NCBI GenBank assembly: GCA_020059745.1
Contig: JAGVBK010000004.1
Coordinates: 26,932-90,931 of the forward strand
Source of the DNA: Candidatus Shapirobacteria bacterium
GTDB lineage: Bacteria > Patescibacteriota > Microgenomatia > UM-FILTER-40-11
Direction: 5' to 3'
DNA: 64,000 nt
Shown here piece after piece: positions 41,380 through 56,375 of this stretch. A model generated the notes under the pieces. That model was not told where the DNA came from and made no database searches. It worked only from the letters and a program-made list of their open reading frames with translations. The translations under genes were made by a program, and so were the position numbers. Numbering within the stretch: the first letter of the stretch is position 1; the number at the start of each line of letters is the position of its first letter.

Positions 41380-41619
41380 TTAAAATATCTTCGTTATTTC
41401 CCAAGAAAATTTCTGTTGATTAAAAGCAAGCTCAAATACCGCATTTCCAGTATCAACTGAAAAGTAAGTAATTTTATCGCTGCCAATGTTTTTGGAGTAA
41501 ATAAAAACAGTTTGAAGAATTTTATAGTTCCGGTTGCGCCAGGAAAAAACAAAGGGTTTAATTCTTCCGTTTTCAAAGAGACAAACTACCCTGACTTTTT
41601 CGTTGATCTTTGTATCCAT
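41380..41619 (-). CDS. hypothetical 79-aa protein upstream of dinB
   Basis: Intact ORF in the same direction as dinB and the desulforedoxin gene. No motif recognised. Confidence 0.5.
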   Translation of the reverse strand: MDTKINEKVRVVCLFENGRIKPFVFSWRNRNYKILQTVFIYSKNIGSDKITYFSVDTGNAVFELAFNQQKFSWEITKIF

Positions 41620-41865: not shown

Positions 41866-41898
41866 GTCAAAAAAACAGGTAGCCTTAAGGCTACCTGT
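41866..41898 (-). terminator. rho-independent terminator after the KGG gene
   Basis: Perfect 24-nt palindrome acaggtagccttaaggctacctgt (41875-41898), followed on the minus strand by TTTTTTT. Confidence 0.8.
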
Positions 41899-41919
41899 TA
41901 AAGGAGACAGCAACTTTTT

Positions 41920-42066
41920 TTATTTGTTTTTATTATTGTTGTATTTTCTGCTTCTGGCCAGTCCGCCTTTTCGGCCTGCTTCAGCATGAGCTTTTGGGTT
42001 GCCAAACCAACCTCTGCCCCGGGGTGTTTGATTATCCATCATTTGCACATCGTCTTTATCTGCCAT
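41920..42066 (-). CDS. KGG-motif small stress protein (YciG/GsiB-like, 48 aa)
   Basis: Below the ORF-track cutoff. The RBS AAGGGGGGTGAT precedes ATG 42066. The translation is MADKDDVQMMDNQTPRGRGWFGNPKAHAEAGRKGGLARSRKYNNNKNK. Confidence 0.7.
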   Translation of the reverse strand: MADKDDVQMMDNQTPRGRGWFGNPKAHAEAGRKGGLARSRKYNNNKNK

Positions 42067-42139
42067 TTTTATCACCCCCCTTCAAAAATAGATTTTTCAT
42101 TACTAAGCAAAATCTTATTGTGCTTGATTAAGTTAATTG

Positions 42140-42167
42140 CTAAGGATCAGTAAGAGTTTTGTAAGAA
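42140..42167 (-). promoter_or_regulatory. three direct heptamers (TTCTTAC aaaa CTCTTAC tga TCCTTAG on the minus strand), arranged like a Pho box
   Basis: GTAAGAG at 42150-56 and GTAAGAA at 42161-67 are 11 bp apart, and CTAAGGA at 42140-46 is 10 bp further. The site is 83 nt upstream of the KGG gene ATG (42066). It abuts a TTGAAA-17nt-TACGAT promoter (42171-42199) for the response-regulator gene. Confidence 0.5.
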
Positions 42168-42232
42168 AGATTGAAATCGCCTCAAAAATAGCGTACGATA
42201 GCCATGATTAAAAAAATGGAGGGGTAAAAAAA

Positions 42233-42904
42233 ATGGTAAGAAATATACTGGTAATTGAAGACGAAAAAGATCTAAATCGCTACATAAAAGAGCTTCTTAC
42301 CGACAACGGCTATTCGGTCCAGGCAGCCACAAAAGGAACAGAGGCTTTGGAAATCATTAAAAAAACCGAGCCTGATTTAATTATTCTTGACCTAGGTCTT
42401 CCTGATATTGACGGCGAAAACATCTGCCGGCAAATTAAAAAAGAGCACCCTGATCTTCCCATCATTATTCTGACTGCCAAGGACGGAGTTTCCAACATTG
42501 TTCACGGCCTTGATATTGGCGCTGACGATTACATGACCAAACCATTTGACGGCGATGAGCTTTTAGCCCGGATTAAAGCAAGGCTAAGAAAAGTGCCAGG
42601 CTCAGCCGAAAGACTCAAAATTGCTGATCTTGAACTTAACCCCACTAATCACGAAGTTAAAAGAGGCAATAAAATTCTCAGGCTTACACCCCAAGAGTTT
42701 AAATTGCTTCATTATTTAATGGTTAACAAGGGGAGGATTTTAACCAGGGACATGATCTTAAGCCGACTTTGGGATTCTTCTCCCGACATTGAAACCAGGG
42801 TAGTTGATGTTTACATCGGTTACTTAAGAAAGAAAATTGATGTTGATTTTGATAAAAAGCTGCTTTATTCTGTCCGTGGTTTTGGTTATATGATTAAAGA
42901 ATAA
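42233..42904 (+). CDS. OmpR/PhoB-family response regulator (receiver plus winged-helix)
   Basis: Receiver motifs (ILVIEDE, DLIILDLGLPDIDG, LTAKD) and a C-terminal trans_reg_C domain (LTPQEFKLLHYLM...VDVYIGYLRKKI...RGFGY). Confidence 0.92.
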   Translation: MVRNILVIEDEKDLNRYIKELLTDNGYSVQAATKGTEALEIIKKTEPDLIILDLGLPDIDGENICRQIKKEHPDLPIIILTAKDGVSNIVHGLDIGADDYMTKPFDGDELLARIKARLRKVPGSAERLKIADLELNPTNHEVKRGNKILRLTPQEFKLLHYLMVNKGRILTRDMILSRLWDSSPDIETRVVDVYIGYLRKKIDVDFDKKLLYSVRGFGYMIKE

Positions 42905-44157
42905 AGCTCGTCTTTTTTCCTTTCTTTAATCTTAAGCGGCAGAGTTACCCTAAAGATAGAACCTTTGCCCAAAGTGCTCTCAACTTCAATTTTCCCCCGG
43001 TAATAGCGCAGAATTCTTTCCGTAATATAAAGGCCCAAACCTACTCCTGAAGAAGATTTTTTCCCTGAAACTGAGCGGTAAAAGGGCTGGAATACTTTTG
43101 TTTTATCCTCTTTGCTTATGCCAACTCCAAAGTCCTGAACCTCAATCTGAAGACTGCTTTCATCCGAAGAGAGTCTGACAACAACTTTATCAGCTTCCGG
43201 CGAATATTTAACCGCGTTTGAAAGAAGATTATTTATAGCCTGAGTTATTCTGGTTTTATCAGCAAAAATCTTTTTTTGAGTTTGTCCCTCAAGAACAATT
43301 TCATGCCGATGCTCGTCAATGAGACTAGCCTGAAAATCCCTTACAAGTTCTTTTACCAAGCGATCAAAACTAAAAAGCTCGTCGCTAAATTCCATTTTTC
43401 CGGCTCTTAGCCTGGAAAGATCGGTAATGTCGTTTATTATCTTTGTTAAGTGGTTGACTTTTTTGTCAATTTTTTTTAGATAAGAGACTGTCTCGACATC
43501 ACCCCTTTTTTCTAGTTTCTTAATTAAAAGCTGAGAAAAGCCTTTAATCGTGGCCAGTGGATTTTTAAGCTCATGCCCTAAAAAAATGTCTTTTTCCTTT
43601 TCTCTTTCTTTCCTCTCAGAAATATCAACAACATAGCTTATGCCCCTGTAATCCTCTGCTTCAATAAAAGCGCCACCGACTAAAACCGGAACGGTTTGAC
43701 CGTCTTTCCCAAGAAGCTCTTTTTCATAAGGTTTGCAGGAACCGCTTTTTGCCATTTGTCTATAGGCTCTCTCGTCCGCTTCCCAAAATTCAGGCGGAGT
43801 CAGCTCTTTTAAGCTAAACCTTTCTTTAAGAACTTCTTGCCTTTGGTAGCCAAGAATGTTTAAAAAAGCATCATTAAAATCAACAATTTCTTGCTTTTCG
43901 TTCCATAAAACAAGACCGATCATGTTTGACTCGGCAATCACTTTGAATTTTGCCTCACTTTGAGCCAGTCTTTCTTTTAGATAATTTCTCTCTGCAAATT
44001 CTTCTTTTAGAGTTATCTCCTCAACCGTTTTTTCTTTCACAGGCAGTGAAGTGTCAGAAGAAACATATTCTCTTTGGGCAGGTATATTTCTTTTCATTCC
44101 AATTTTCTTTCTAACTAAGCTGATTTTATCATCATTGCAACTTGTAAAAGAAATCAC
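42886..44157 (-). CDS. PAS-domain sensor histidine kinase (cytoplasmic)
   Basis: PAS region, H-box FLGHELKNPLATI, N-box LLSNAVKYS and G-boxes DFGVGI/GLGLYI. It is convergent with the response regulator and overlaps it by 19 nt. Confidence 0.9.
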   Translation of the reverse strand: MISFTSCNDDKISLVRKKIGMKRNIPAQREYVSSDTSLPVKEKTVEEITLKEEFAERNYLKERLAQSEAKFKVIAESNMIGLVLWNEKQEIVDFNDAFLNILGYQRQEVLKERFSLKELTPPEFWEADERAYRQMAKSGSCKPYEKELLGKDGQTVPVLVGGAFIEAEDYRGISYVVDISERKEREKEKDIFLGHELKNPLATIKGFSQLLIKKLEKRGDVETVSYLKKIDKKVNHLTKIINDITDLSRLRAGKMEFSDELFSFDRLVKELVRDFQASLIDEHRHEIVLEGQTQKKIFADKTRITQAINNLLSNAVKYSPEADKVVVRLSSDESSLQIEVQDFGVGISKEDKTKVFQPFYRSVSGKKSSSGVGLGLYITERILRYYRGKIEVESTLGKGSIFRVTLPLKIKERKKDELYSLII

Positions 44158-44233
44158 AGCTTAGCCGTTAAAAAATGAAGTTTCTTTCTGCCTCATTGTC
44201 TTTTTAAGGAATTAAAATTAAGTCGCAGAAAGG

Positions 44234-44251
44234 TAATAATTAGGTAAGAAA
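44234..44251 (-). promoter_or_regulatory. direct heptamer pair TTCTTAC-ctaa-TTATTAC (minus strand)
   Basis: GTAATAA at 44234-40 and GTAAGAA at 44245-51 are in 11-bp register, 76 nt upstream of the kinase ATG (44157). Confidence 0.5.
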
Positions 44252-44252
44252 C

Positions 44253-45059
44253 CTATTTTTCTTTTTTGAGAGATGAAAAAATACCAGTTTTTTTTATTGC
44301 CATATCTAAGCTTTTCTCAAGTTCGCTTTCAATTTCTTGCTCGGGAGTTGGGGCCGGTAGCTCACCCTTAGGCGGAGGCAGACGATCCTGGACCTTCTCC
44401 TCAATCAGGTTTAAAAGATCATCAGTATATGTGTCTTCGTAAAGCTCCGGCCTGAAGGGAATAGTTAAGCTGTCAACCAAACGAAGAGCAGTATCAAGTT
44501 CTTTTAGGGTAATTTCCTCTGACTTGGGAAGATTAAGTTCTTTTTGTTTTTTTATCTCCCAATCAAAACGCATTTGGTTAAGAAAAATTACGTTATCTTC
44601 AGCCTTAAGGATTCCCAGATGCTCTCTTGTTCTTATTACAAATTTGACAACACCAACCTTTTCCGAACGCTTAAGCGCTTCCCTTAAAAGGGCATATGAT
44701 TTTCTGCTCCCCTCCTCAGGTTCCAAAAAATAAGGCTTTTCCAAATACTTGGGATTAATTTCCTCTTCCTTGACAAAGTTCATCACCTCAATAGCTCTTG
44801 TCCGGTAAACATTGGCCCTTTCTAAGTCGTCATCCGTAACAGTCACATATTTTCCTTCTTTATACTCATACCCTCTTACAATATCGCTAAAAGCAACCTC
44901 CTCCCCTGTTTTGGCGCAAACGCGCACATATTGAATCGGACATAAATCTTTTTTTCTTAAAAAGAAAAATCTAAGTTTTTTTTGGTCCGTGGCATTATAA
45001 ATCTTAACCGGTATTCTCACCAAGCCAAAATCAATAAAACCGATTTTGATAGGCTTCAT
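44253..45059 (-). CDS. ku: Ku protein (non-homologous end joining)
   Basis: ORF track 44253..45098, with ATG 45059 preferred. FGLVRIPVKIYNAT and the following beta-barrel core match bacterial Ku. Confidence 0.88.
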   Translation of the reverse strand: MKPIKIGFIDFGLVRIPVKIYNATDQKKLRFFFLRKKDLCPIQYVRVCAKTGEEVAFSDIVRGYEYKEGKYVTVTDDDLERANVYRTRAIEVMNFVKEEEINPKYLEKPYFLEPEEGSRKSYALLREALKRSEKVGVVKFVIRTREHLGILKAEDNVIFLNQMRFDWEIKKQKELNLPKSEEITLKELDTALRLVDSLTIPFRPELYEDTYTDDLLNLIEEKVQDRLPPPKGELPAPTPEQEIESELEKSLDMAIKKTGIFSSLKKEK

Positions 45060-45165
45060 AAAAAAAACCTTATCTTTTAGGCTTAAACCCCAAGTCAAAA
45101 CCTGGTAATAAGAAGGAAAGATTTTACTATTGCATTTAAAAGAAAGTTAAGGTTAAATCTCAATT

Positions 45166-45639
45166 ATGCCTTTAATCGGGTTTTTTGACCAAAAAGACCA
45201 AAAAGAAGTAAATGGATTTATTGACGAAATTTTTTCGGAAATGGGTTGGAAAAAAGATTTTCTTTACGGAACAGAAGACATTGCCTCCTTTTTTAGCGGA
45301 AAAAGGGACGCTTTTTTTGTGGTAAAGGAAAATAACCAAATCACTGGAACCCTGGGCCTCAAAGAACTTGAAAACGGTAAAGGACTTTTAAAAAGGTTTT
45401 ATCTTGACAAAAATTGCCGGGGCCGGGGCGTTGCCCAAGATTTGCTAAAAAAAGCAGTTGAGTTTGCCCGAGAAAAAAGCTATGAAACTCTGGTTTTAGA
45501 CACCCAAGCCGATAACCTAAGGGCCCAAAGATTTTATGAAAAAAGCGGTTTTGTTCCTTTTAACCCTGAACCCAACCAAAAATGGCCTGAGTCGCTTCAT
45601 CCTGATATTTTTGTCTACAGAATGCTTAAACTGTCCTAA
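45166..45639 (+). CDS. GNAT-family N-acetyltransferase
   Basis: Acetyl-CoA motif A: RGRGVAQDLLKKAVEFAREK...RFYEKSGF. Confidence 0.85.
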   Translation: MPLIGFFDQKDQKEVNGFIDEIFSEMGWKKDFLYGTEDIASFFSGKRDAFFVVKENNQITGTLGLKELENGKGLLKRFYLDKNCRGRGVAQDLLKKAVEFAREKSYETLVLDTQADNLRAQRFYEKSGFVPFNPEPNQKWPESLHPDIFVYRMLKLS

Positions 45640-45655
45640 TTTACTAATTTGTTAC
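45638..45655 (+). promoter_or_regulatory. direct heptamer pair AATTTAC-taat-TTGTTAC (weaker motif member)
   Basis: 11-bp register, 38 nt upstream of the BON gene start at 45694. Confidence 0.35.
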
Positions 45656-45693
45656 AGATTTCATAACTAATCTTTGGAAGTTAAGCTTAGGCT

Positions 45694-46041
45694 TTGGCTA
45701 TGGCTGGTTTTAAATGGGGAAACTGGAATTATCCCCCCTGGGGCAGGGGTGTTTACACGCTTCCTTACCGGGCTTATCAGGAGGGCTCTTGTGCAGATTA
45801 TCAAGCTCTTGACCTGCGCTTAATGACAGACGAGGACTTAAGAGAAAATGTTATTTGGGCAATTTATGCCAATCCGGAAATTCCCAAAGAAGAAAAAGAC
45901 AAGATTGAAGTTAAAGCAAAAAATAAAACAGTGGTTCTTTCAGGAAAAGTCAAAAACCGCAAAAATAAAATCAGGGCATTTGTCTCGGCTCTGCAAACAC
46001 CCGGAGCAAGAAGTGTTAAAAACAACATCAAAGTAGCTTAA
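45694..46041 (+). CDS. BON-domain protein (OsmY-like)
   Basis: C-terminal BON pattern IEVKAKNKTVVLSGKVKNRKNKIRAFVSALQTPGARSVKNNIKV. Confidence 0.75.
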   Translation: MAMAGFKWGNWNYPPWGRGVYTLPYRAYQEGSCADYQALDLRLMTDEDLRENVIWAIYANPEIPKEEKDKIEVKAKNKTVVLSGKVKNRKNKIRAFVSALQTPGARSVKNNIKVA

Positions 46042-46137
46042 GATTAGTCCTTTTCCCATTCTCCAGTCGGGGTCTTTGTACTGATCCCAGGCACTATTAA
46101 AGGCCTCACGGTAAATGTCTTTTGCCTGCTCAGGCAA
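45940..46137 (-). pseudogene. ChaB-like fragment (N-terminal half only)
   Basis: DLPEQAKDIYREAFNSAWDQYKD matches the ChaB signature (LPxxAQxIYxEAFNSAWxxY). The conserved AHKVAWAAVK half is missing, and the ORF tail runs antisense into the BON gene. Confidence 0.4.
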
Positions 46138-46182
46138 GTCAGTTTTATTTAGATTAAAAATAAGTTATAAAAAAATAAGGGC

Positions 46183-46200
46183 TTCTTACTTTTTTATTAC
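46183..46200 (+). promoter_or_regulatory. direct heptamer pair TTCTTAC-tttt-TTATTAC (consensus copy)
   Basis: 11-bp register, 59 nt upstream of ATG 46260 of the Gly/Tyr-rich BON protein. Confidence 0.5.
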
Positions 46201-46259
46201 CACCTTATTTTCCCCGGTTAAACATAAAAAAATATCGTTAAAAAAAGGAGGTGATAAAT

Positions 46260-46730
46260 ATGTTTCCATACGGATACGGCTATGGCGGTTATGGAGGTTA
46301 TGGCGCCCCTTACGGCGGATACGGCTATGGCGGTTATGGAGGTTATGGCGCCCCTTACGGCGGTTATGGTTACGGCGGTTATGGACCTGGTTATTGGGGA
46401 TACGGGCCCGACTGGGACTATACAGACTATTATGACTACAACAGAAACCTTGTTCTTGACGATAATGAAATTGAAGATCTGGTAAGTGACAATATCGCCT
46501 CTGACCCCTATATTCCCCAAAGGGATGTTAACAGTATTGAGGTAAAAGTAGAAGATGGCGTAGTTCACCTTTCGGGAACTGTACGCAATCGAAGAAGCAA
46601 GCCTCTTGCTTACGCTGATGCTTTTTGGAGCCGGGGGGTGGTTGATGTGCAAAGCAATATCAAGGTTGAAGAAAGAAGCCGGGAAAGAGAGGAAAGAGGA
46701 AGAAAGAAAGAAAAAGAAGAAAGACAATAA
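46260..46730 (+). CDS. Gly/Tyr-repeat BON-domain protein
   Basis: ORF track 46251..46730. ATG 46260 is preceded by AAAGGAGGTGA. It has an N-terminal (GYGYGGYGGYGAPYG)n low-complexity region. This is followed by the BON domain (IEVKVEDGVVHLSGTVRNRRSKPLAYADAFWSRGVVDVQSNIKV) and a KE-rich tail. Confidence 0.85.
   Translation: MFPYGYGYGGYGGYGAPYGGYGYGGYGGYGAPYGGYGYGGYGPGYWGYGPDWDYTDYYDYNRNLVLDDNEIEDLVSDNIASDPYIPQRDVNSIEVKVEDGVVHLSGTVRNRRSKPLAYADAFWSRGVVDVQSNIKVEERSREREERGRKKEKEERQ
46271..46384 (+). repeat. 45-bp tandem repeat (two perfect copies plus a partial third)
   Basis: 46271..46315 and 46316..46360 are identical (cggatacggctatggcggttatggaggttatggcgccccttacgg), followed by a degenerate partial copy. 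Each copy encodes the 15-aa GY unit. Confidence 0.9.
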
Positions 46731-46736
46731 CCAAAG

Positions 46737-48275
46737 ATGAAGGCAGATCAACCGAAAAAAGAAAGCAGCTTGCCGGGAAAACCAAGCTCTTTTTGGCTGG
46801 AAACAGCCCCAGATAAACAGTTCCCAAAAGCTAAGGGCTATTTTTCTTTGGATGTTGCCGTTATTGGCGGTGGTATTGTGGGAATAACTACAGCCTACCT
46901 TCTTGGCAAAGCCGGATTAAAGGTAGCGGTTTTGGAAAAAGATAAAATTCTTCATGGCGTTACCGGCCATACCACCGCCAAGCTTACTTCCCAGCACGGA
47001 CTTATCTATCGCCATTTGATTAACAATTTTGGCCGGGAAAAAGCACAAACTTACGCAGAGGCCAACCAAAAAGCCATAGAAAAAGTGTTCGAAATCGCTG
47101 AAAAAGAAAAAATTGAATGTGATCTTAAAAGGGCCCTTGCTTATACTTACACAGAAGAAGAAAACGACAGAAAGGAAGCTTTAGAAGAAATAAAAGCCTG
47201 CCAAAGCTTAGGCTTGCCGGCAAAACTTAAAGAAGAAATTTCTTTACCTTTTAAGACCAAAGGCGCAGCCTGTTTTGAAAATCAAGCCATTTTTCATCCC
47301 TTAAAATTCCTTTACTCTTTGGCAGAAATTGTTTCAAAAAACGGCGGCTTAATTTTTGAAAATTCAAAAGTCATTAAGGTTAATGAAGGCAAAGAATGTC
47401 TTATTAAAACAGAAGAGGCAGAAATTAAAGCCAAAAAGGCAATTTTAGCCACCAACTTTCCCATTTACGATCAATGCTATTTTTTTGCCAGAATGTGGCC
47501 AAAACGCTCTTACGCTTTGGCGGTCAAGCTTAGAGAGAAGCTTCCTGAGGATTATTTTATTAGCTCAAGAAAAAAATTCCACTCCATCCGCCCGCATTTT
47601 TACGATAAAGGCTCAATTCTTATTATCGGCGGTGAGCCACACCGCACTGGACAGGGAAACGATACGGTCAAGCTCTATAAAAACCTTATTGAATTTGCCC
47701 AAAAAAATTTTGAAGTTGATTCTGTTTTATACCGCTGGTCAACTCATGACCAAATGCCGGCAGACAATGTCCCTTTTATTGGCAGAAGCTCCTTAAGGTC
47801 AAAAAACATCTTTGTTGCCACTGGTTTTAAAGGCTGGGGGATGTCTCACGGCATTGTGGCAGCCATGCTTTTTTTAGATTTAGTCAATGAGCAGAAAAAC
47901 CCCTGGGGTGAGCTCTATGATCCCTGTCGGTTTGAAGGAAAAGCGTCCGTAAAGACAATCATTGATCAAGGTATTACTGTTGCCAAAGAATATTTAGGGA
48001 ACCGTTTTCCCGGAAGAAAGCAGCAATCTCCCAGAGAATTAAAAAAGAAAGAAGCCGCAATAGGAGAAGAAAACAGCCAAAAAATTGCAATTTATAAAGA
48101 CGGTGAGGGGAAAAGCCATAAGGTCTCGGCTGTCTGTACTCACATGGGTTGCACTGTTTCCTGGAATAATGCTGAAAAAAGCTGGGACTGTCCTTGTCAT
48201 GGCTCAAGGTTTAACCATAAAGGTGAAGTTATTCATGCACCTGCAGTTAAAAATCTAAAAAAAATAAAGACTTAA
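46737..48275 (+). CDS. FAD-dependent oxidoreductase fused to a C-terminal Rieske [2Fe-2S] domain
   Basis: Dinucleotide fold VAVIGGGIVGITTAY and the Rieske motifs CTHMGC...CPCHGS. Confidence 0.88.
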   Translation: MKADQPKKESSLPGKPSSFWLETAPDKQFPKAKGYFSLDVAVIGGGIVGITTAYLLGKAGLKVAVLEKDKILHGVTGHTTAKLTSQHGLIYRHLINNFGREKAQTYAEANQKAIEKVFEIAEKEKIECDLKRALAYTYTEEENDRKEALEEIKACQSLGLPAKLKEEISLPFKTKGAACFENQAIFHPLKFLYSLAEIVSKNGGLIFENSKVIKVNEGKECLIKTEEAEIKAKKAILATNFPIYDQCYFFARMWPKRSYALAVKLREKLPEDYFISSRKKFHSIRPHFYDKGSILIIGGEPHRTGQGNDTVKLYKNLIEFAQKNFEVDSVLYRWSTHDQMPADNVPFIGRSSLRSKNIFVATGFKGWGMSHGIVAAMLFLDLVNEQKNPWGELYDPCRFEGKASVKTIIDQGITVAKEYLGNRFPGRKQQSPRELKKKEAAIGEENSQKIAIYKDGEGKSHKVSAVCTHMGCTVSWNNAEKSWDCPCHGSRFNHKGEVIHAPAVKNLKKIKT

Positions 48276-48901
48276 ATACTCTGGATTATTTCAATGGTAT
48301 TTAAAATCTCTTCAACCTGAAAAAAGCTCTCACTTTCAGAAGAAGTAATAATGCCTGAAATCTCATAAATTTTACCGTTTTTAATAGTGGTCAGATTAAT
48401 ACCCTGGCTTTCGTTTCCTTTGGTTAGAGTCTTTTTAAAAACAACTCCGTTTATAACTACATTCTCACATTTTTCAAAAGAGCCTTCACAATCTAAATGA
48501 TTTTTTAAGGATTGCTTTATTCCCTCGGTTACAATATTAAAATTAATAACTACCGCATCTGCCGGCAAAATAAAAGCACTTTTTTGCTCCTGATAGTCAA
48601 AATTTGCCAGAGCCCAAGACTCAACAGGAACCCGAAAACTGCTTTGTGCTTTTGGAGAAACTTCAACAACTTTCCATTCCGGGGGGTAGCTGAATTTAAA
48701 AGAATTGTCCTTACTTAAAAAAGCCTTCCACCCCTTTTCGTCTAAATCCTCAATTCCCCCCTGGTCTTGCCAAGAGTAAATTTCCTCCTTAAATGTAAAA
48801 ATCTCCTCAAAAAAGCGGTCGGAAAACAAAAAATCAAAAGACAATAAAAAGACAATAAAAAAAGAAAGAAACAAAAAAATTACGAGGGCTACTTTCATCA
48901 A
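48272..48901 (-). CDS. hypothetical membrane-anchored/secreted protein
   Basis: N-terminal TM (VALVIFLFLSFFIVFLLSF) and a beta-rich remainder. No motif recognised. Confidence 0.55.
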   Translation of the reverse strand: MMKVALVIFLFLSFFIVFLLSFDFLFSDRFFEEIFTFKEEIYSWQDQGGIEDLDEKGWKAFLSKDNSFKFSYPPEWKVVEVSPKAQSSFRVPVESWALANFDYQEQKSAFILPADAVVINFNIVTEGIKQSLKNHLDCEGSFEKCENVVINGVVFKKTLTKGNESQGINLTTIKNGKIYEISGIITSSESESFFQVEEILNTIEIIQSI

Positions 48902-48943
48902 GCTAACTTAGCGTTTGGGGTTGATAAAGGGATAAAAGCCGAG

Positions 48944-48961
48944 CAAGAGATTAGTAAGAAA
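48944..48961 (-). promoter_or_regulatory. direct heptamer pair TTCTTAC-taat-CTCTTGC (minus strand)
   Basis: GCAAGAG at 48944-50 and GTAAGAA at 48955-61 are in 11-bp register, 42 nt upstream of ATG 48901. Confidence 0.4.
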
Positions 48962-49012
48962 CATTGAAAAAGCCAAAGTTTCCCAATAGAATAAATATAC
49001 TGTAAAAAATAT

Positions 49013-49558
49013 ATGTCTTTTACCAACATTGACACCGGCAATAGGAGTCCTGAAATTATAAATGTGGTGGTGGAAATCCCCAAAGGCTCTCACAACAAAT
49101 ATGAATATGACGAAAAAACCGACGAAATCAGGCTGGACCGCGTTCTTTATTCTGCTGTTTTTTATCCCTCCGACTATGGCTTTGTTCCCCATACCCGCTC
49201 TGAAGACGGTGACCAGCTTGATGTGATGGTGATCATCTCTGAGCCTCTTTTTCCGGGTTGTGTTTTGCCGGTAAGGCCAATTGGCGTTTTAAGCATGGAA
49301 GATGAAGAAGGCAATGACGACAAGGTGATTGCCGTGGCCTTAAAAGATCCCAGGCTTAAGCAAGTTAATTCAATAAACGACCTTGACAGTCATTACAAAA
49401 AAGAGATCCAGAACTTTTTTGAAATGTACAAAAACCTGGAAAAAAAACCAGTTAAAGTTCACCGCTGGCTTGGCAAAGAAGAAGCTTTTAGGATAATAAA
49501 TAAAGCCAAGGAAAGATACGAAAAAGAAATAAAGAAAGAGCCTGAAAAAAAAGATTAG
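49013..49558 (+). CDS. ppa: inorganic pyrophosphatase (family I)
   Basis: EIPKGSHNKYEYD and DGDQLDVMV motifs. Confidence 0.92.
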   Translation: MSFTNIDTGNRSPEIINVVVEIPKGSHNKYEYDEKTDEIRLDRVLYSAVFYPSDYGFVPHTRSEDGDQLDVMVIISEPLFPGCVLPVRPIGVLSMEDEEGNDDKVIAVALKDPRLKQVNSINDLDSHYKKEIQNFFEMYKNLEKKPVKVHRWLGKEEAFRIINKAKERYEKEIKKEPEKKD

Positions 49559-49559
49559 T

Positions 49560-49823
49560 TTATTTTTTGCTATTTTTCTTCTCGATAAAGGAAAGCAGTC
49601 TGCCGTTATCAATATCCCAACGGTTAAGCCAGAAAATATATAAAATTTCCAAAATCCCTAAAGTGTTAAAAACCAAAATAACAATAAACCAAAGAAGGTG
49701 TCTTTTACCGGCTGCCTTCCAAAGAGCCCAACCTTTCCAGAAAAGAGCCCATAAAAGAAAGAAAGTCTTTACTCCCGGGTCTGACAAGAAATTCACTACC
49801 TGACTCTCAAAATTGTTCATCAA
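49560..49823 (-). CDS. DUF5652-family membrane protein
   Basis: KGWALWKAAGKRHLLWFIVILVFNTLGILEILYIF matches the family pattern. Confidence 0.7.
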   Translation of the reverse strand: MMNNFESQVVNFLSDPGVKTFFLLWALFWKGWALWKAAGKRHLLWFIVILVFNTLGILEILYIFWLNRWDIDNGRLLSFIEKKNSKK

Positions 49824-49835
49824 ACCAGTATAACA

Positions 49836-50063
49836 TTAAAGCTTTCGCCGGCAAAAGACCGGAGACACAAAAGCAAGGTACAACCCAGCCAGTCCGACCA
49901 GCACATATATTGTCCGCGTGATTGAACTCATCACTCCGAAAAGAGCAGATACAAGATTATAATTAAAAAGGCCAACAGCTGCCCAATTAAGAGCTCCTAC
50001 AATCACTAAAATCAAGGATATCCAGTCAAGCACATTAAGCCTTCCGACATTATTTACATCCAC
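49836..50063 (-). CDS. DUF378-family small membrane protein
   Basis: LDWISLILVIVGALNWAAVGLFNYNLV, with two TM helices. Confidence 0.75.
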   Translation of the reverse strand: MDVNNVGRLNVLDWISLILVIVGALNWAAVGLFNYNLVSALFGVMSSITRTIYVLVGLAGLYLAFVSPVFCRRKL

Positions 50064-50138
50064 TTTGACTCACCTCCCTCATCTTAAGATAACTTTTTTA
50101 AATCTATATTCGGGTTATGAGAAAAAAATAAAAAACAG

Positions 50139-50156
50139 GTAATAAAGAGGTAAGCG
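50139..50156 (-). promoter_or_regulatory. direct heptamer pair CGCTTAC-ctct-TTATTAC (minus strand)
   Basis: GTAATAA at 50139-45 and GTAAGCG at 50150-56 are in 11-bp register, 75 nt upstream of the DUF378 ATG (50063). Confidence 0.45.
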
Positions 50157-50160
50157 CTTC

Positions 50161-51663
50161 CTAAGGAAAATTTAAGAAAACCTCTTTGAGTGTTTGCTTC
50201 TCTAGGTTAAACACTCTTATCAAGTGATTATTGGTATCTGAAATATAAAGGTTGTCTTTTGAAAAATAAACATCATTAGGTTCAAAAAGAGGTAAAACTT
50301 CACAAGACCTGTCGTTTATGGTGCAAAACCGGGGAGAATCCTCTCTTTTAATAAGGGAAGTCACTTTTCTTTCCCGAAGACTAAGATTCCTAATGGCATG
50401 ATTATAGGTGTCGGCTACAAACACCTCTCCTTCCTTAGCAAAAATCCCTAAGGGGTGCTGAAATTCCGCCTCGCCGAAAGAGCCATCTTTAAAACCAAAT
50501 TCGAACAAACCTTTGCCAACAAGGGTTTTTACCTCACCCTCTCTAAGGTCAATGTACCTGATGGCAGAAACCTCGCTGTCGGCAAAATATATTCTTTCTT
50601 TATAAATGCTTATTCCGCTGGGCTGAGCCATCTGGCTTGCAAGAAGACTTGCATCAACAATATTTTCAAGACCGCTTCCGGCAAAAACCCTAATCAGGTT
50701 TTCCGCAATATTAAGGCTAAAAATCTGATGGCTTCCGGCCATAGCTATATAAAGATAGCCTTCGGCATAATCAAGGTCCCAAGGCGAATTTAAACTAATC
50801 TCTAAAGATTTACTTTCACCCGAAGGAGCTACCCCTTGTCTGCCGTTTCCCGCCACCGTCTCCACCTCTTTTTTTCTTAAATCAACCCTTCTTAAAAGGT
50901 GGTTTTCCGTATCACAAATATAAAGAAAATCGCCTACCAAGCAAAGCCCTTGTGGCTGGTTAAAAGAAGCGTTTTCAAGAGAGCCGTCTCTATCTCCTTT
51001 TTTTCCTGAGCCAATAATCTCGGTCACTTTCACCTGGTCAGGAGAAAGAAATCGGCTTTCTATTATCCGGTGATGATTTGAATCAGAAATATAAAGATAT
51101 TCTCCCCGGGAATCCAGTGTAATTTTTGAAGGAAATGAAAGCGTGCTTTTTAAGACTGGCGTTTTTTTAATAAATTGAGGCGGAGCTTTTGCCAAAATCC
51201 CTCGATTTTTTCCTTCCTTAAGCAAACCTTCAACTGTTTTATCAAGCTGCAAACGCCAACCTTCTCCAGCCACCTGGCCCCTGATTGCTCCCTCTCCGTC
51301 AAGTAAAACAAAAGTGGGCCAAGCCCGCACAGTGTAGGCCTCCCAAAGCTCCCGGTTATTATCAAGAACAACCGGATGCTCAATTCCGTAGCGGGCAACG
51401 GCAGAGACAACATTTTCCTTCTTTTTTTCATTGGCAAACTTTGGCGAGTGAACACCAATAACTAAAAAGGGCTCATTTTTATACTTGTCCTCTAGATACT
51501 TAAGATCAGGAAGAATGTGAATACAGTTTATGCAACAGTAAGTCCAAAAATCGAGCAGAACTACATATCCTTTTAAATCTTTTAGGCTTAAGTCTTTTGA
51601 AGTGTTTAACCAAGTAGCTTCCTTAGGTAAATCCGGAGCATAGAGATTGTAAGCTTCAACCAT
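50161..51663 (-). CDS. thioredoxin-like (redoxin) domain fused to an NHL-repeat beta-propeller
   Basis: N-terminal FWTYCCINCIH (CxxC) redoxin fold and C-terminal repeated NHL units (YISDSNHHRI, YICDTENHLLRRV, VADTYNHAIR, YISDTNNHLIR). Confidence 0.85.
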   Translation of the reverse strand: MVEAYNLYAPDLPKEATWLNTSKDLSLKDLKGYVVLLDFWTYCCINCIHILPDLKYLEDKYKNEPFLVIGVHSPKFANEKKKENVVSAVARYGIEHPVVLDNNRELWEAYTVRAWPTFVLLDGEGAIRGQVAGEGWRLQLDKTVEGLLKEGKNRGILAKAPPQFIKKTPVLKSTLSFPSKITLDSRGEYLYISDSNHHRIIESRFLSPDQVKVTEIIGSGKKGDRDGSLENASFNQPQGLCLVGDFLYICDTENHLLRRVDLRKKEVETVAGNGRQGVAPSGESKSLEISLNSPWDLDYAEGYLYIAMAGSHQIFSLNIAENLIRVFAGSGLENIVDASLLASQMAQPSGISIYKERIYFADSEVSAIRYIDLREGEVKTLVGKGLFEFGFKDGSFGEAEFQHPLGIFAKEGEVFVADTYNHAIRNLSLRERKVTSLIKREDSPRFCTINDRSCEVLPLFEPNDVYFSKDNLYISDTNNHLIRVFNLEKQTLKEVFLNFP

Positions 51664-51671
51664 AGCGGTAG

Positions 51672-52148
51672 CTAAAGATTAAAACGGTCAAGTTCAGGCC
51701 AATAAACATCACCTGCCACTCCTAAAAGAGAGGCGCATTTTTTCAGGCAATCACTCGCGGCCGATTTAAGATCATCGGCAATACTGATAAGCTCACCGTT
51801 TCGGGTGTATTTTATGTCAGAACCGCCATACTGCGCCTTAACAATGGTATGGTCTTTTATCCTCACGGTTAGCTCTCCCCTAACCCAGACCTGTTTTTTC
51901 CCTACCTCCTGATCTAAAATCCGAAAATCCCAATCCCAACCAAAAGCCTGATTTAAAAGATTGACTACATACCCGATTTCCACATAGTCAAGCTCTTTGC
52001 CGCCCGGACCTGGTCTTTTTTTTATAAACTGCTTGGGTGTCTTTTGGGTAATAAAACTGCGCTGGGCCTGGTTTAGATTTTGCGGCAACTGGTTAAGTTT
52101 AAGGTCTTTTTCATTATTCTCTTCCATACGGTAAATATGAATTTTCAT
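51672..52148 (-). CDS. Rad52/Rad22-family single-strand annealing protein
   Basis: KRPGPGGKELDYVEIGYVVNLLNQAFGWDW and DDLKSAASDCLKKCASLLGVAGDVY align with the Rad52 N-terminal signatures ([26 protein letters not shown] and EAVTDGLKRALRSFGNALG). Confidence 0.75.
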   Translation of the reverse strand: MKIHIYRMEENNEKDLKLNQLPQNLNQAQRSFITQKTPKQFIKKRPGPGGKELDYVEIGYVVNLLNQAFGWDWDFRILDQEVGKKQVWVRGELTVRIKDHTIVKAQYGGSDIKYTRNGELISIADDLKSAASDCLKKCASLLGVAGDVYWPELDRFNL

Positions 52149-52171
52149 AATAAAAGAACCCTTAAAGCAAG

Positions 52172-52208
52172 GTAAGACCTTGGTAATAGATTCTTACTTT
52201 TGTCTTAC
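52172..52208. promoter_or_regulatory. four heptamers in two opposed pairs: GTAAGAC-cttg-GTAATAG and TTCTTAC-tttt-GTCTTAC
   Basis: 52172-78/52183-89 (facing the rad52-like gene) and 52191-97/52202-08 (facing the aldo/keto reductase, 44 nt before GTG 52253). Each pair is in 11-bp register. AAGGTAAGAC and GTCTTACCTT also form a 10-bp inverted repeat. Confidence 0.5.
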
Positions 52209-52252
52209 CTTCTTTAAACAAAGGGTTTGGTTTTGGCTTTTAAGATAAAAGG

Positions 52253-53023
52253 GTGGTATTTTTTGAGTTTAAAGACGGCAGTAAAGTTCCGGCATTAGGC
52301 TTGGGAACCTGGAACCTAACCGGAGAAAACGGTAAAAGAGCAGTCGCCAAAGCGTTGGAAATCGGCTACCGCCATTTTGACACCGCAGAAGCTTACGGCA
52401 ATCACCGTATTGTCGGCGAGGCAATCGCGGAAAGCGGGATAGAAAGAAAAGAAATATTTATTACCTCAAAAGTACCGTCAAGAAGTCTTTTAAAAGAGGC
52501 GGTTATTGAAAGCGGTAAAAGAGCTTTGGACGAACTTAAAACAGATTACCTTGACCTTTTTCTAATCCACTGGCCAAACCCTTCAGTTCCGATAAAAGAA
52601 ACACTTTCCGGTTTTAGTGAGCTTAAAGAAAAAGAATTAATTCGTTCAATCGGAGTTTCCAATTTCGGCATCGAAGAGCTTAAAGAAGCTTTAAAAGAAG
52701 GAGTGAAAATTGTAAATAACCAAGTGGAGCTTCATCCCTCTTTTAACCAAAGCAGGTTGAAGAGCTATTGTGCTGAAGAAAAAATTATAATCACCGCCTA
52801 CTCGCCTTTTGCCCAGGGAAAGGACCTCAAGCTCAAAGAAATAAATAAGCTTTCAGAAAAATACAACCATCCGGCTTCACAAATTATTATTAATTGGATT
52901 ATCCAAAAAGAAATGATTGCCATCCCAAAATCAGGAAACGAGGAACATCTTAGAGAAAATTTCAATGCCTTAGAGTGGAAACTGGCAAAAGAAGATATTG
53001 ATTTGATTGATAAAATTAGTTAA
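52253..53023 (+). CDS. aldo/keto reductase (2,5-diketo-D-gluconate reductase-like)
   Basis: GLGTW, HFDTAEAYGN and LIHWP motifs. GTG start. Confidence 0.88.
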   Translation: MVFFEFKDGSKVPALGLGTWNLTGENGKRAVAKALEIGYRHFDTAEAYGNHRIVGEAIAESGIERKEIFITSKVPSRSLLKEAVIESGKRALDELKTDYLDLFLIHWPNPSVPIKETLSGFSELKEKELIRSIGVSNFGIEELKEALKEGVKIVNNQVELHPSFNQSRLKSYCAEEKIIITAYSPFAQGKDLKLKEINKLSEKYNHPASQIIINWIIQKEMIAIPKSGNEEHLRENFNALEWKLAKEDIDLIDKIS

Positions 53024-53091
53024 ATTATAAAAACTCCCCTTGTTGTTTAAGTTTTGTTTGGTATAATTATCGACTTAACCGGAGTCAAAAA

Positions 53092-53727
53092 ATGATTCAA
53101 AAAATTAAAAGATGGTACAAAGAACTTCCCGATAATAAGCGCTACTTTGAACTTTTAAGCGCAGTGCTCTCTATTCCTGTTTTAGTTACGGTGATTCTTT
53201 TAAATGTTAACAATCTCGAAAACATGAGAAGCAGGTCAGTGGAAAAAGAAGCGGCCGGAAAAGCTCCGGAACCCACTGTCATTGAAAGAATTATTGAAAA
53301 AGAGGTTTCTCCCACCATTGAGCCGTCTCCTTCCCCAACCCCACCCGCTACTACCCCACAAGAATGCATTAAAGAAATCGGGCCGGTGGAAATAATCACT
53401 CCTTCTGAAAACGAAGTCATTGCCAAAGACCCAATTTGCATTGAAATCTCGCGCTCAAACAAGTATTGTTCTGTAGTCTGGTCCTATAGAATTAACGGAG
53501 GGTCTTGGTCTGATTTTACCGATAAGTCTATTTGCATCTACAGTCTTTCCCCTGGAGAAAAAAAGCTTGAGCTGAGAGTCAAAAGTTTAGTTTCAAACGA
53601 GCAAGTCTTACTTGAAAGAAACTTTACTATTAAAAGTGAGGAAATTCCTACCCCCGGACCAACCATTGAACCCGTTTCTGTGGAACCAAACAAAGAAAAC
53701 GACCCGAACAAAGTCTCGGAACTATAA
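53092..53727 (+). CDS. hypothetical membrane-anchored protein with a Pro-rich linker
   Basis: A TM (LLSAVLSIPVLVTVILL), a PSPSPTPPATTP linker and a beta-rich C-terminal domain. Confidence 0.55.
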   Translation: MIQKIKRWYKELPDNKRYFELLSAVLSIPVLVTVILLNVNNLENMRSRSVEKEAAGKAPEPTVIERIIEKEVSPTIEPSPSPTPPATTPQECIKEIGPVEIITPSENEVIAKDPICIEISRSNKYCSVVWSYRINGGSWSDFTDKSICIYSLSPGEKKLELRVKSLVSNEQVLLERNFTIKSEEIPTPGPTIEPVSVEPNKENDPNKVSEL

Positions 53728-53730
53728 TTC

Positions 53731-53748
53731 CTCTTACAAATTCCCTAC
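53731..53748 (+). promoter_or_regulatory. direct heptamer pair CTCTTAC-aaat-TCCCTAC
   Basis: 11-bp register, 78 nt upstream of ATG 53827 of the GlsB/YeaQ-family gene. Confidence 0.45.
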
Positions 53749-53826
53749 AAGTTATTAAAAAAAGCTTTAAGTATGCCGGTTAAGCTAGCTATAGATTGTT
53801 TTGAGAGCTCAAAGGAGGTGAAGATA

Positions 53827-54075
53827 ATGAATTTACTTTTGTGGATACTGCTCGGCCTTATTGCAGGCTGGCTGGCCTCAGTTATTGTCAGAACCAACCG
53901 CACCCAAGGACCGCTTATGGATATTATCCTGGGGGTTTTAGGCGCTTTAGTAGGAGGCTTTATTATGAGCTTGCTTGGTTTTGGCGGCATTACGGGATTT
54001 AATATCTATAGCATTATTGTGGCTACCCTGGGTGCTATTCTTCTTATTGTCTTGCGCCGGGCTTTATTAAGATAA
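53827..54075 (+). CDS. GlsB/YeaQ/YmgE-family stress-response membrane protein
   Basis: ORF track 53773..54075. ATG 53827 is preceded by AAGGAGGTGA. LLWILLGLIAGWLASVIV...ILGVLGALVGGF matches the family. Confidence 0.82.
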   Translation: MNLLLWILLGLIAGWLASVIVRTNRTQGPLMDIILGVLGALVGGFIMSLLGFGGITGFNIYSIIVATLGAILLIVLRRALLR

Positions 54076-54116
54076 AGGTTGTCCTAAAAAGGAGGTTGTG
54101 ATAAGGTAAAGTACTA

Positions 54117-55232
54117 ATGAAGTATCGGAGTTTTGGCAAGCTTGAGTATCAGCCTTCAGCTTTGGGGTTTGGAGCAATGAGGCTCCCTGTCTTAGGAGAC
54201 CCCCCAAGAATTGACGAAGAAAAAGCAATTAAAATGATTCACCGGTCAATTGAGGGCGGTGTCAATTATATTGACACCGCTTTTCCTTATCATAAAGGAG
54301 AAAGTGAAATCCTGGTCGGGAAAGCGCTTAAAGGCCAATACCGAAAAAGGGTAAAACTCGCCACCAAACTTCCCTCCTGGCTAGTAGAGGACAAAGCAGA
54401 CTTTGACAAGTTTTTAAACAAACAGCTTGAAAAATTGCAAACCGACCACATCGACTTTTACTTATTGCACAGCCTAGACAAAGAAAAATGGCAAAACCTT
54501 AATCGGCTTTCAGTCTTTTCTTGGGCGGAAAAAGCTGAAAAAGACGGAAGAATCGGTCATCTTGGCTTTTCCTTTCATGACCAGTATGAGGTTTTCAAAG
54601 AGATTGTTGACGGTTATGACAAGTGGACCTTTTGCCAAATTCAACTAAACTACATGGATGAAGATTTTCAAGCAGGGAAAAGGGGGCTAAAATATGCCTC
54701 CCAGAAAGGATTGGCCGTAGTGGTCATGGAGCCTTTAAAAGGAGGCAGGCTTGCCAACCCGCCAGAAGCTGTTAAGAACATCTTTGAAAGCGCCGGAAAG
54801 AAAACCCCGGTTGACTGGGCTTTGGGGTGGGTTTGGAGTCATCCAGAGGTTTCTTTGCTCTTAAGCGGCATGAGCAGCTTAGACCAAGTTGAAGAAAATC
54901 TTGCCATCGCTGACCGCTCGGCTGCCAACAGTCTTACGGAAAGAGACCTTAAAATAATCAAAAAAGCAAAGGAAAAATATCTTTCTTTCAAGCCTGTTCC
55001 CTGCACCGGATGTGAATACTGTCTTCCCTGCCCGCAAGCAATTAATATTCCCAAAATCTTTGAGATTTACAACGATGCAGTCATGTATGGCAATTTAAAG
55101 CAGGCAAAGGAACAATACCAAAGACTTAATGGCGTGGAAAATTGCTTAAAGTGCTTTCGCTGCGAAAAGCTCTGTCCTCAGGGTATAAAAATTACGGAGC
55201 AATTAAAAAAAGCCCAGGAGCTCTTGGCCTAA
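54117..55232 (+). CDS. aldo/keto reductase with a C-terminal 4Fe-4S-binding extension
   Basis: AKR core (GFGAMRLP, YIDTAFPYH, DFYLLH) and the C-terminal Cys clusters CTGCEYCLPCP and CLKCFRCEKLCP. Confidence 0.85.
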   Translation: MKYRSFGKLEYQPSALGFGAMRLPVLGDPPRIDEEKAIKMIHRSIEGGVNYIDTAFPYHKGESEILVGKALKGQYRKRVKLATKLPSWLVEDKADFDKFLNKQLEKLQTDHIDFYLLHSLDKEKWQNLNRLSVFSWAEKAEKDGRIGHLGFSFHDQYEVFKEIVDGYDKWTFCQIQLNYMDEDFQAGKRGLKYASQKGLAVVVMEPLKGGRLANPPEAVKNIFESAGKKTPVDWALGWVWSHPEVSLLLSGMSSLDQVEENLAIADRSAANSLTERDLKIIKKAKEKYLSFKPVPCTGCEYCLPCPQAINIPKIFEIYNDAVMYGNLKQAKEQYQRLNGVENCLKCFRCEKLCPQGIKITEQLKKAQELLA

Positions 55233-55369
55233 AAGCCGAGTATCCCCAACCTTGAAAGTGCAGCCCCAATCAGTCCAGCCACTAACCCGCACCAAAAAGG
55301 CAAAAGATTTAAAGAAGAAAAACCTTCTTTGTCAAAATCACAGCAAATCTTTAATTTTAGCTTTTTCAT
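55229..55369 (-). CDS. 46-aa hydrophobic ORF (tentative)
   Basis: Below the ORF-track cutoff, with translation MKKLKLKICCDFDKEGFSSLNLLPFWCGLVAGLIGAALSRLGILGF. Support comes from an upstream TTGACA (55414..55409) and the heptamer triple at 55421-55452. The RBS is weak. Confidence 0.3.
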   Translation of the reverse strand: MKKLKLKICCDFDKEGFSSLNLLPFWCGLVAGLIGAALSRLGILGF

Positions 55370-55420
55370 TTTTCTAAAGTAGCCCACCCTAACATCGGGT
55401 TAAAAAAATGTCAACAGGAA

Positions 55421-55452
55421 GTAAGGATTTTGTAAGAAAAAAATTGTAAGAG
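55421..55452 (-). promoter_or_regulatory. three direct heptamers (CTCTTAC aattttt TTCTTAC aaaa TCCTTAC on the minus strand)
   Basis: GTAAGGA at 55421-27 and GTAAGAA at 55432-38 are 11 bp apart, with GTAAGAG at 55446-52. It shares the 12-mer TTTTGTAAGAAA with the 42157-42168 site. Confidence 0.45.
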
Positions 55453-55497: not shown

Positions 55498-55740
55498 TCA
55501 AGCTTTTTCTCTAATTAACTGAAAAAAGTTTTCAAAATAACGAGGAAAGACTTCTCCTGAGTAATACATTTTTCGGGAAAAGCTTAAGAGCTTTTCCACT
55601 AAATTTTTTTCCGTTCCCCTTGATTGGTACCACTTTTGCCTAAGATTGCTTTCAAGTGATTCCCAGTTGCTTTCTTTGGTAGTGTTCCAGATTTCATAGA
55701 CAAACTCTCGCGAAGCATTCATCCCAATCCCCTTATCCAC
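55498..55740 (-). CDS. hypothetical 80-aa protein
   Basis: Intact ORF overlapping the upstream gene by 22 nt. No motif recognised. Confidence 0.45.
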   Translation of the reverse strand: MDKGIGMNASREFVYEIWNTTKESNWESLESNLRQKWYQSRGTEKNLVEKLLSFSRKMYYSGEVFPRYFENFFQLIREKA

Positions 55741-56321: not shown

Positions 56322-56375
56322 GCCAAAAAACTAACAAAAAAGGTTATTAAAAATGACAATAACTTGTAAGGAAAA

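Follow-up and report, generated by a model that had tools for sequence, protein, structure and literature searches.

The DNA analysed here, referred to as the window, is a stretch of 64,000 nucleotides (nt) from a contig of a Candidatus Shapirobacteria bacterium, with a G+C content of about 40%, and all coordinates are positions in it. Between 41.9 and 56.4 kb, Pfam searches identified genes for an OmpR-type response regulator, a convergently transcribed soluble PAS-HisKA-HATPase histidine kinase, Ku, a GNAT protein, two BON-domain proteins and a DAO-Rieske oxidoreductase, as well as for a PsbP-like secreted protein, an inorganic pyrophosphatase, DUF5652 and DUF378 proteins, a thioredoxin-NHL protein, a Rad52/22-like protein, two aldo/keto reductases, a Transgly_assoc protein and a methyltransferase. 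Nearly every transcription unit of this island is preceded by a tandem array of heptamers of the TTCTTAC type that lies upstream of a -10 box; twelve such promoters, among them one further site at position 1824, and one weak candidate were found. This promoter element, its target genes and the response regulator that probably binds it are the subject of this work (Table 1).

An earlier note on this DNA had described pairs of 7-nt direct repeats upstream of many start codons, and all eleven sites that it named are present in the sequence, two of them with coordinates that were shifted by one (corrected, the histidine kinase site lies at 44233..44250 and that of the 209-aa secreted protein at 48943..48960). 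The core of the element, TTAC-N7-TTAC, was seen 12 times in the window when 1.69 copies were expected, and none of 100 shuffled sequences reached 12; eight of the 12 copies lie within 42-55.5 kb, all of them intergenic. In an unbiased survey that covered all direct repeats of 4-mers separated by 0-20 nt throughout the intergenic DNA (4.8 kb; 5376 tests), TTAC with a gap of 7 ranked first, with 8 copies versus 0.42 expected (Poisson p = 1.8e-8), and it was also among the top direct repeats over the whole window. A 56-nt matrix built only from the sites of other genomes gave 11 matches of at least 10 bits in the window, all of them upstream of genes, versus 0.48 in Markov-shuffled controls. With the full matrix, 12 sites scored 17-39 bits, the next independent match scored 8.3, and matches in coding sequence reached at most 6.6. 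The enrichment of a recurrent bipartite direct repeat upstream of genes is thus borne out in the window beyond shuffled controls. The further claim that most copies of TTCTTAC belong to upstream pairs was wrong, since only 6 of 20 do; those six fall within about 7.5% of the sequence, and therefore TTCTTAC is enriched in the upstream pairs.

An alignment on the repeat of 29 intergenic TTAC-N7-TTAC sites, drawn from the window and from seven related genomes, revealed a third heptamer (TTyTtAy) at +11 and a fourth (TTyTTAn) at +22 downstream, followed by TAnnAT at positions 33-38 after the second heptamer (T in 21/29, A in 24/29, A in 18/29 and T in 24/29). With TAnnAT taken as the -10 box, the array spans approximately -62 to -23: the first two heptamers, H1 and H2, are strong, have the consensus TTCTTAC and lie at about -62..-56 and -51..-45, and the other two, H3 and H4, are degenerate (TTyTtAn) and lie at about -40..-34 and -29..-23. 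A heptamer matrix derived from H1 and H2 alone gave downstream peaks at +11 and +22 only, and upstream of H1 there was no general in-register peak at -22, extra heptamers being found at DUF378 only. H4 is 10 bp from the -10 box in most sites, with a shift of 2-3 nt in two, and every site is oriented toward its gene. The element of two heptamers 11 bp apart that had been described before was therefore correct in register but not in extent, as it comprises four heptamers in register and a -10 box. The spacers and flanks of the 29 sites carry no information, the conserved columns being the heptamers and the -10 box only, so the sites are not copies of a single cassette. It could still be argued that the pattern arose by chance, from compositional bias or as copies of a duplicated or mobile promoter cassette, given the high AT content of intergenic DNA and the frequency of T-rich heptamers in it. 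However, the enrichment is far beyond that of the shuffled controls, the motif is kept in orthologous promoters even where the regulator orthologue is only 65-80% identical, and an Rfam scan of the window matched four tRNAs only and thus no known RNA element accounting for the upstream regions. Such an origin is extremely improbable.

The regulon promoters lack a -35 element, the best match to TTGACA averaging 1.9 of 6 versus 2.46 at random positions. The unregulated genes inside the island, namely the regulator gene and the inorganic pyrophosphatase gene at 49013, have canonical TTGAAA-17-TAnnAT promoters of their own; that of the regulator gene indicates that ordinary promoters of this organism do have a -35. 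The 7-nt direct repeats, the 11-bp periodicity, the degenerate heptamers in register, the distance of 10 bp between the array and TAnnAT and the missing -35 agree with the Pho-box-like tandem site that had been suggested for the element, and they support its predicted membership in the OmpR/PhoB-type class of activator-dependent promoters. An alternative considered in the earlier note was that the heptamers are promoter elements of an alternative sigma factor, which would here be one for general stress, and the gene content does resemble the general-stress regulons of sigma-B and RpoS. This alternative found no support, because the -10 box is the ordinary TAnnAT of the housekeeping type and the heptamer occurs four times (six times at DUF378) at 11-bp intervals, unlike a layout of two boxes with a spacer of 16-18 nt. 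Furthermore, no sigma-factor gene is present among the annotated genes of the window or in the gene lists of the relatives, and we regard this explanation as very unlikely.

The missing -35 also bears on the sign of regulation. The regulator might bind the repeats but repress or roadblock transcription, so that an inactive regulator would leave the regulon de-repressed; H3 and H4 lie over the position of the would-be -35, OmpR-family proteins can repress over core promoter elements, and a PhoP repression complex has been reported (PMC11825685). Yet promoters without a recognisable -35 would be weak alone, while the unregulated neighbours have one, and the array keeps a single orientation and, with two sites that are 2-3 nt out of place as exceptions, a constant distance from the -10 box in every genome. 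Activation via contact with RNA polymerase needs fixed orientation and spacing and repression does not, which argues against a repressor, and we consider repression to be an unlikely mode of action.

Table 1. Regulatory genes, predicted promoters and coinciding start codons in the 64,000-nt window.
Feature	Position	Strand	Details	Start codon at predicted transcription start
OmpR/PhoB-family response regulator gene	42233..42904	+	Pfam Response_reg 3.6e-33, Trans_reg_C 4.6e-24	
Soluble PAS-HisKA-HATPase histidine kinase gene	42886..44157	-	Pfam; without membrane anchor	
Orphan MASE3-HisKA-HATPase histidine kinase gene	58541..60040	+	no adjacent response regulator	
Promoter, KGG-like small gene	42112..42167	-	four heptamers; -10 TAAGAT; 36.7 bits; gene ATG 42066..41920	
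Promoter, kinase gene	44195..44250	-	26.8 bits with relatives-only matrix	
Promoter, Ku gene	45067..45122	-	-10 TAAGGT; gene 45059..44253; Ku Pfam 9.7e-46; absent from earlier list	ATG 45059
Promoter, first BON gene	45638..45693	+	17.3 bits; BON Pfam 4.6e-10	ATG 45700
Promoter, Gly/Tyr-rich BON gene	46183..46238	+	gene ATG 46260..46730; matrix match, Pfam	
Promoter, 209-aa PsbP-like secreted protein gene	48905..48960	-	matrix match	ATG 48898
Promoter, DUF378 and DUF5652 genes	50101..50178	-	six heptamers in 11-bp register; genes 50063..49836 and 49823..49560; Pfam	
Promoter, Rad52/22-like gene	52134..52189	-	gene ATG 52127 to 51672; matrix match, Pfam	ATG 52127 (Met8 of the mechanical open reading frame)
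Promoter, first aldo/keto reductase gene	52191..52246	+	gene GTG 52253..53023; matrix match, Pfam; back-to-back with the rad52 promoter	GTG 52253
Promoter, Transgly_assoc (GlsB/YeaQ/YmgE) gene	53731..53786	+	gene ATG 53827..54075; matrix match	
Promoter, putative 46-aa hydrophobic reading frame	55383..55438	-	reading frame 55369..55229; -10 probably shifted, TAGGGT	
Distant promoter, 205-aa secreted protein gene	1824..1879	+	gene 1911..2528; -10 TATAGT 2 nt nearer than usual; 18.6 bits	
Weak, tentative 13th promoter, methyltransferase gene	56328..56383	-	gene 56321..55719; -10 TAGTTT; 8.3 bits	ATG 56321
Sigma-70-type promoter, regulator gene	42171..42199	+	TTGAAA-17-TACGAT; abuts H1 of the divergent KGG-like promoter	

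Compared with the earlier list of sites, the inventory gained the Ku site, the weak methyltransferase candidate, which is the best match other than shifted registers of the twelve sites, and the six in-register heptamers at DUF378. One of the promoters detailed in Table 1, that at 42112..42167, precedes a gene for a 48-aa protein that had been labelled KGG. This label is weak, since Pfam KGG does not match the window protein even at E = 5 and its counterpart in a relative reaches E = 0.064, and the protein is referred to here as KGG-like. When its promoter was aligned with those of L082, L083, L002 and L004 (the loci retrieved by searches are denoted by such identifiers), the conserved blocks were the heptamers and the -10 box; a terminator-like hairpin is located at 41899..41874. 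The kinase promoter reads TTCTTAC ctaa TTATTAC cttt CTGCGAC ttaa TTTTAAT, followed after 10 nt by GACAAT. For Ku, an independent gene call on L001 gave a 268-aa product. The gene for the FAD-oxidoreductase/Rieske protein (46737..48275) probably forms one operon with the Gly/Tyr-rich BON gene, the thioredoxin-NHL gene (51663..50161) is probably in the same operon as the Rad52-like gene, and the second aldo/keto reductase gene (54117..55232) may be co-transcribed with the Transgly_assoc gene. The DUF378 heptamers are TTCTTAA, TCCTTAG, CGCTTAC, TTATTAC, TTTTTAT and TTCTCAT, a number that would fit three tandem dimers of a regulator. An NCBIfam search with the small or unknown target proteins gave no family match. 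Just past the island, at 40023..41619 on the minus strand, lie a gene for a Y-family polymerase (DinB/IMS-like) and a conserved 79-aa gene of unassigned function; in L082 and L083 both show synteny with the regulator, and no motif was found in front of them.

The -10 assignment also places the expected point of transcription initiation about 6-7 nt past the -10 box, and in six genes this coincides with the first in-frame start codon (Table 1). A Shine-Dalgarno sequence is absent from all six. Most other regulon genes have leaders of 15-35 nt with GGAGG-type sites, and the 46-aa reading frame has a leader of about 10 nt and no clear Shine-Dalgarno site. By a rough estimate, the chance that 6 of 13 promoters would fall within such a 2-nt window is about 1e-6, which supports both the -10 assignment and leaderless expression. 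The six genes, about half of the units, are thus probably expressed as leaderless mRNAs, and the mechanical reading-frame starts of the Ku, first BON, 209-aa and rad52 genes would accordingly be too far upstream. In the relatives, the same coincidence or leaders of 1-5 nt were observed. If this holds, the coincidence of starts is sequence-based evidence for widespread leaderless translation in the lineage.

In a protein search, the regulator was 100% identical to an NCBI entry for a DNA-binding response regulator of a Candidatus Microgenomates bacterium. Its orthologues in that search are numbered in the hundreds, are 61-80% identical and are annotated as Microgenomates, Levybacteria, Roizmanbacteria or Patescibacteria. 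The comparison set consisted of 11 loci with a regulator orthologue at 65-80% identity (Daviesbacteria, Levybacteria and other Microgenomates) and one distant locus at 47%; called-gene lists were examined for seven loci of relatives. Of the 80 loci returned by a search of genome contigs with the regulator protein, only L002-L005 carry orthologues, and the others, which carry paralogues with 37-50% identity and belong to other phyla, were used solely as negative controls. A matrix built from the 12 sites of the window alone recovered the same 56-nt architecture in 10 of the 11 orthologue loci, upstream of orthologous genes. The earlier note had proposed to look for loss of the sites from the orthologous promoters of relatives; they are kept there, upstream of the KGG-like, BON, 209-aa-like, DUF378 and Transgly_assoc orthologues and beside the regulator orthologue. 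For instance, L083 retains the promoter at the KGG-like gene, both BON genes, the 209-aa-like gene (16186..16241; 17741..17796 in L082) and the DUF378 gene (18503..18558), and in L084 nine promoters surround the regulator, including those of a GAF kinase, a Pfam-positive KGG gene next to YflT, a Transgly_assoc gene and a BON gene. Orthologous BON promoters with the motif are present in L082, L083 and L084, and Transgly_assoc genes with the motif in L002, L003, L004, L084, L085 and L208. The regulator start has a site no more than about 160 bp away in 9 of the 11 loci, even though the divergent partner differs (a KGG-like gene, a Transgly_assoc gene, a kinase gene or the regulator gene itself, as in L005, where the promoter faces it). 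In the control set, the paralogue loci of other phyla gave 19 matches of at least 9 bits in 1.24 Mb, versus about 30 in 0.13 Mb of Microgenomates loci, and with the full matrix they gave 6 matches of at least 11 bits. A scan of metagenome contigs with TTCTTAC-N4-TTCTTAC was uninformative on the distribution of the motif: among the matches listed, 5 of 130 exceeded the 99th percentile of an independent H3/H4/-10 score, and nearly all were chance matches or tandem repeats.

The regulator is the only response regulator in the window, as the earlier note had stated for the OmpR type, and histidine kinases number two, the second being the orphan MASE3 kinase. The regulator combines a receiver domain with intact phospho-acceptor residues and a winged-helix Trans_reg_C domain; D53, T81, Y100 and K103 are present in it and invariant in the 11 orthologues, as are the recognition helix I186-K201 and the wing. 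The closest solved homologue is Mycobacterium tuberculosis PhoP (E = 7.8e-47), and the regulator falls below the cut-off of every NCBIfam equivalog; the best NCBIfam matches of the PAS kinase are PnpS and PhoR, both far under cut-off. The genes for the regulator and this kinase are convergent, with 3' ends that overlap by 19 nt (42886..42904), and they therefore do not form an operon. Autoregulation of the kinase, suggested earlier, would fit the presence of a site in front of the kinase gene, which suggests positive feedback. The MASE3 kinase may provide a second input to the regulator.

A Pho regulon was tried by equivalogs and rejected: the scores were 205.1 bits against a cut-off of 296.2 for PhoB (TIGR02154), 163.7 against 334.2 for PhoR (TIGR02966) and 181.7 against 400 for PnpS. 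No pst/pho-family genes (pstSCAB, phoU, phosphatases) were found among the targets in the window or in the called-gene lists of the seven relatives. With scores so far under the PhoB and PhoR cut-offs and no pst/pho targets, this is not a phosphate regulon.

Several observations concern the surroundings of the regulator gene. Its start at 42233..42242, ATGGTAAGAA, includes GTAAGAA, which reads TTCTTAC on the other strand, as is also the case in L082; this may be a coding coincidence or an extra autoregulatory half-site. Further heptamers are located upstream of the regulator gene in L004 and L002. In relatives, the kinase gene is convergent in L082 and L083 and divergent in L084, the sensor domain of the kinase is PAS in some and GAF in others, and two kinase genes are likewise located close to the regulator in L085 and L208. 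In L207 the regulator has VKOR/DHO_dh upstream, Nramp downstream and no adjacent kinase.

It is probable, at roughly 0.75 by our estimate, that the repeats are the operator of the response regulator at 42233..42904. From sequence we infer which protein is the binder, whether it activates or represses, to which signal the system responds and what role the regulon has in physiology. A different account is that the conserved operator is real but bound by another protein encoded outside the window, either of the OmpR family or another tandem-repeat-binding factor, and that the adjacency of regulator and sites reflects co-regulation. In its favour, the analysis was limited to 64 kb of the genome, the regulator of L207 has no site, the nearest site in L206 is 1.5 kb off, and L208 has an extra gene for a single-domain receiver nearby. 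On the other hand, no second response regulator is encoded in the window, and the sites stay next to the regulator orthologue in 9 of 11 genomes although the partner gene changes. An invariant TTAC core is matched by an equally invariant recognition helix, and the half-site length and spacing are those of the closest solved homologue, so that a different binder appears improbable.

Some points weigh against the assignment to the regulator of the window. The link between the regulator and the motif is drawn from linkage and from an architecture typical of the family, and other OmpR-type regulators may be encoded elsewhere in the genome, of which 64 kb were analysed. L207, a Roizmanbacteria contig of 8759 nt whose regulator is 69% identical, has no motif match of at least 9 bits, and in L206 the regulator is 1.5 kb from the nearest site. 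As the relatives are phylogenetically related, the 10 of 11 loci are not independent events. Some -10 boxes are poor, such as GACAAT at the kinase gene and the shifted box at the 46-aa reading frame, and the strong pair is distal with the weak pair at the -35, an arrangement that would nevertheless fit hierarchical cooperative binding. Lastly, the gene content looks like that of a general-stress or dormancy regulon on the basis of family names only, with an insignificant KGG match.

If the regulator does bind the repeats, the adjacent soluble PAS kinase, and perhaps also the orphan MASE3 kinase, would phosphorylate it, and the phosphorylated regulator would bind as head-to-tail dimers, first to the distal, high-affinity pair. 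Cooperative filling of the weak proximal pair, which would replace the -35, would then allow the bound regulator to recruit the RNA polymerase holoenzyme, in the manner established for PhoB and M. tuberculosis PhoP. The output would be a compact island of about 12 transcription units. Its products of stress or dormancy type would be the KGG-like protein, the two BON proteins, the Transgly_assoc, DUF378 and DUF5652 proteins, the aldo/keto reductases and the thioredoxin-NHL protein, together with functions in double-strand-break repair (Ku and the Rad52-like protein).

Binding of this kind has well-characterised precedents. In the case of OmpR at ompF and ompC and of Bacillus subtilis PhoP, cooperative occupation starts from an upstream site of high affinity and spreads to weaker sites that are promoter-proximal. 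PhoP-activated promoters of B. subtilis require four TTAACA-like repeats with a spacing of about 11 bp at roughly -60 to -20, which is the span observed in the window, although the half-site sequences and physiological signals of OmpR and B. subtilis PhoP differ from those of the window. The half-site of M. tuberculosis PhoP is TCACAGC, as compared with TTCTTAC here. M. tuberculosis PhoP binds as a head-to-tail dimer to 7-bp direct repeats with a 4-bp spacer (PMC4832192), and cryo-electron microscopy showed tandem dimers, tetramers or hexamers as its activating forms, bound to PHO boxes that overlap the -35 position and extend upstream of it, where it displaces the contact of sigma-A region 4 with the -35 (PMC11825685). 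The repeats of the window resemble those of this protein (PDB 5ED4, 9JI3-5) in half-site length and spacing, and the four-heptamer arrays would correspond to the tetramer and the six-heptamer DUF378 array to the hexamer; the differences lie in the host, which belongs to the candidate phyla radiation (CPR), in the soluble PAS kinase (GAF in relatives), in the targets and in the promoter-distal position of the strong pair. Pho boxes of Escherichia coli are 11-bp tandem direct repeats that end 10 bp upstream of a TAN3T -10 box in promoters without a -35 (PMC1906773). The promoters of the window share the 11-bp tandem repeats, the 10-bp distance and the missing -35 with PhoB-dependent promoters, but unlike the E. 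coli Pho regulon, the system has sub-cut-off regulator and kinase scores, no pst/pho targets and a kinase without a membrane anchor.

Significant Pfam matches among the targets are BON, Transgly_assoc, DUF378, aldo/keto reductases, thioredoxin-like, Ku and Rad52-like. The sigma-B regulon of Bacillus and the RpoS regulon of E. coli include the KGG-repeat (GsiB/YciG), BON (OsmY), Transgly_assoc (YeaQ/YmgE/GlsB) and YflT families; unlike in those regulons, control here is apparently by a response regulator on housekeeping-type promoters, and Ku and a Rad52-like protein are included. We tentatively suggest, as a possibility that falls somewhat short of an even chance, that the two-component system is the master switch of a Microgenomates general-stress or dormancy programme, in the role played elsewhere by sigma-B, RpoS or EcfG. 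It would couple KGG-like, BON, Transgly_assoc and DUF378 proteins with Ku and Rad52-like repair, much of it through leaderless expression, and would respond to an intracellular signal via soluble PAS or GAF kinases.

Little is known of how genes are regulated in the CPR/Patescibacteria, most members of which are uncultivated. In a full-text literature search, we found no description of the motif, of any response-regulator regulon in Microgenomates or Patescibacteria, or of a binding motif of a Microgenomates regulator. Tandem activation of the OmpR/PhoB type is well established, and novelty lies in this member of the class, in its lineage and in its set of targets; what is gained is hence of a biological nature and in scope, not a new kind of mechanism. 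The locus amounts to a concrete, testable circuit, with a 56-nt promoter architecture, a candidate regulator, two candidate kinases and conserved targets, and the conserved target set points to the stress survival of ultra-small cells, including survival of DNA breaks. The circuit offers a way to approach the regulation, stress biology and leaderless expression of the CPR without cultivation.

Other features of the window were recorded besides the island. The four tRNA genes are located at 6515..6589 (minus strand), 2580..2651, 3127..3197 and 3261..3335, and they include a tRNA-Ile whose TAT anticodon is encoded in the genome, two tRNA-Met (CAT) and a tRNA-Trp. At 32600..32986 on the minus strand, between the PGA_cap and ZIP transporter genes, lies a gene for a 23S-rRNA-intervening-sequence-protein or bAvd-like protein (Pfam 1.8e-39). 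It is flanked by 36-nt inverted repeats of CTACnnn heptads at 32596..32631 and 32999..33034 that are 83% complementary, and the gene and its flanking repeats may be a small inserted cassette. CTAC-N3-CTAC was the second strongest direct-repeat signal in the intergenic DNA.

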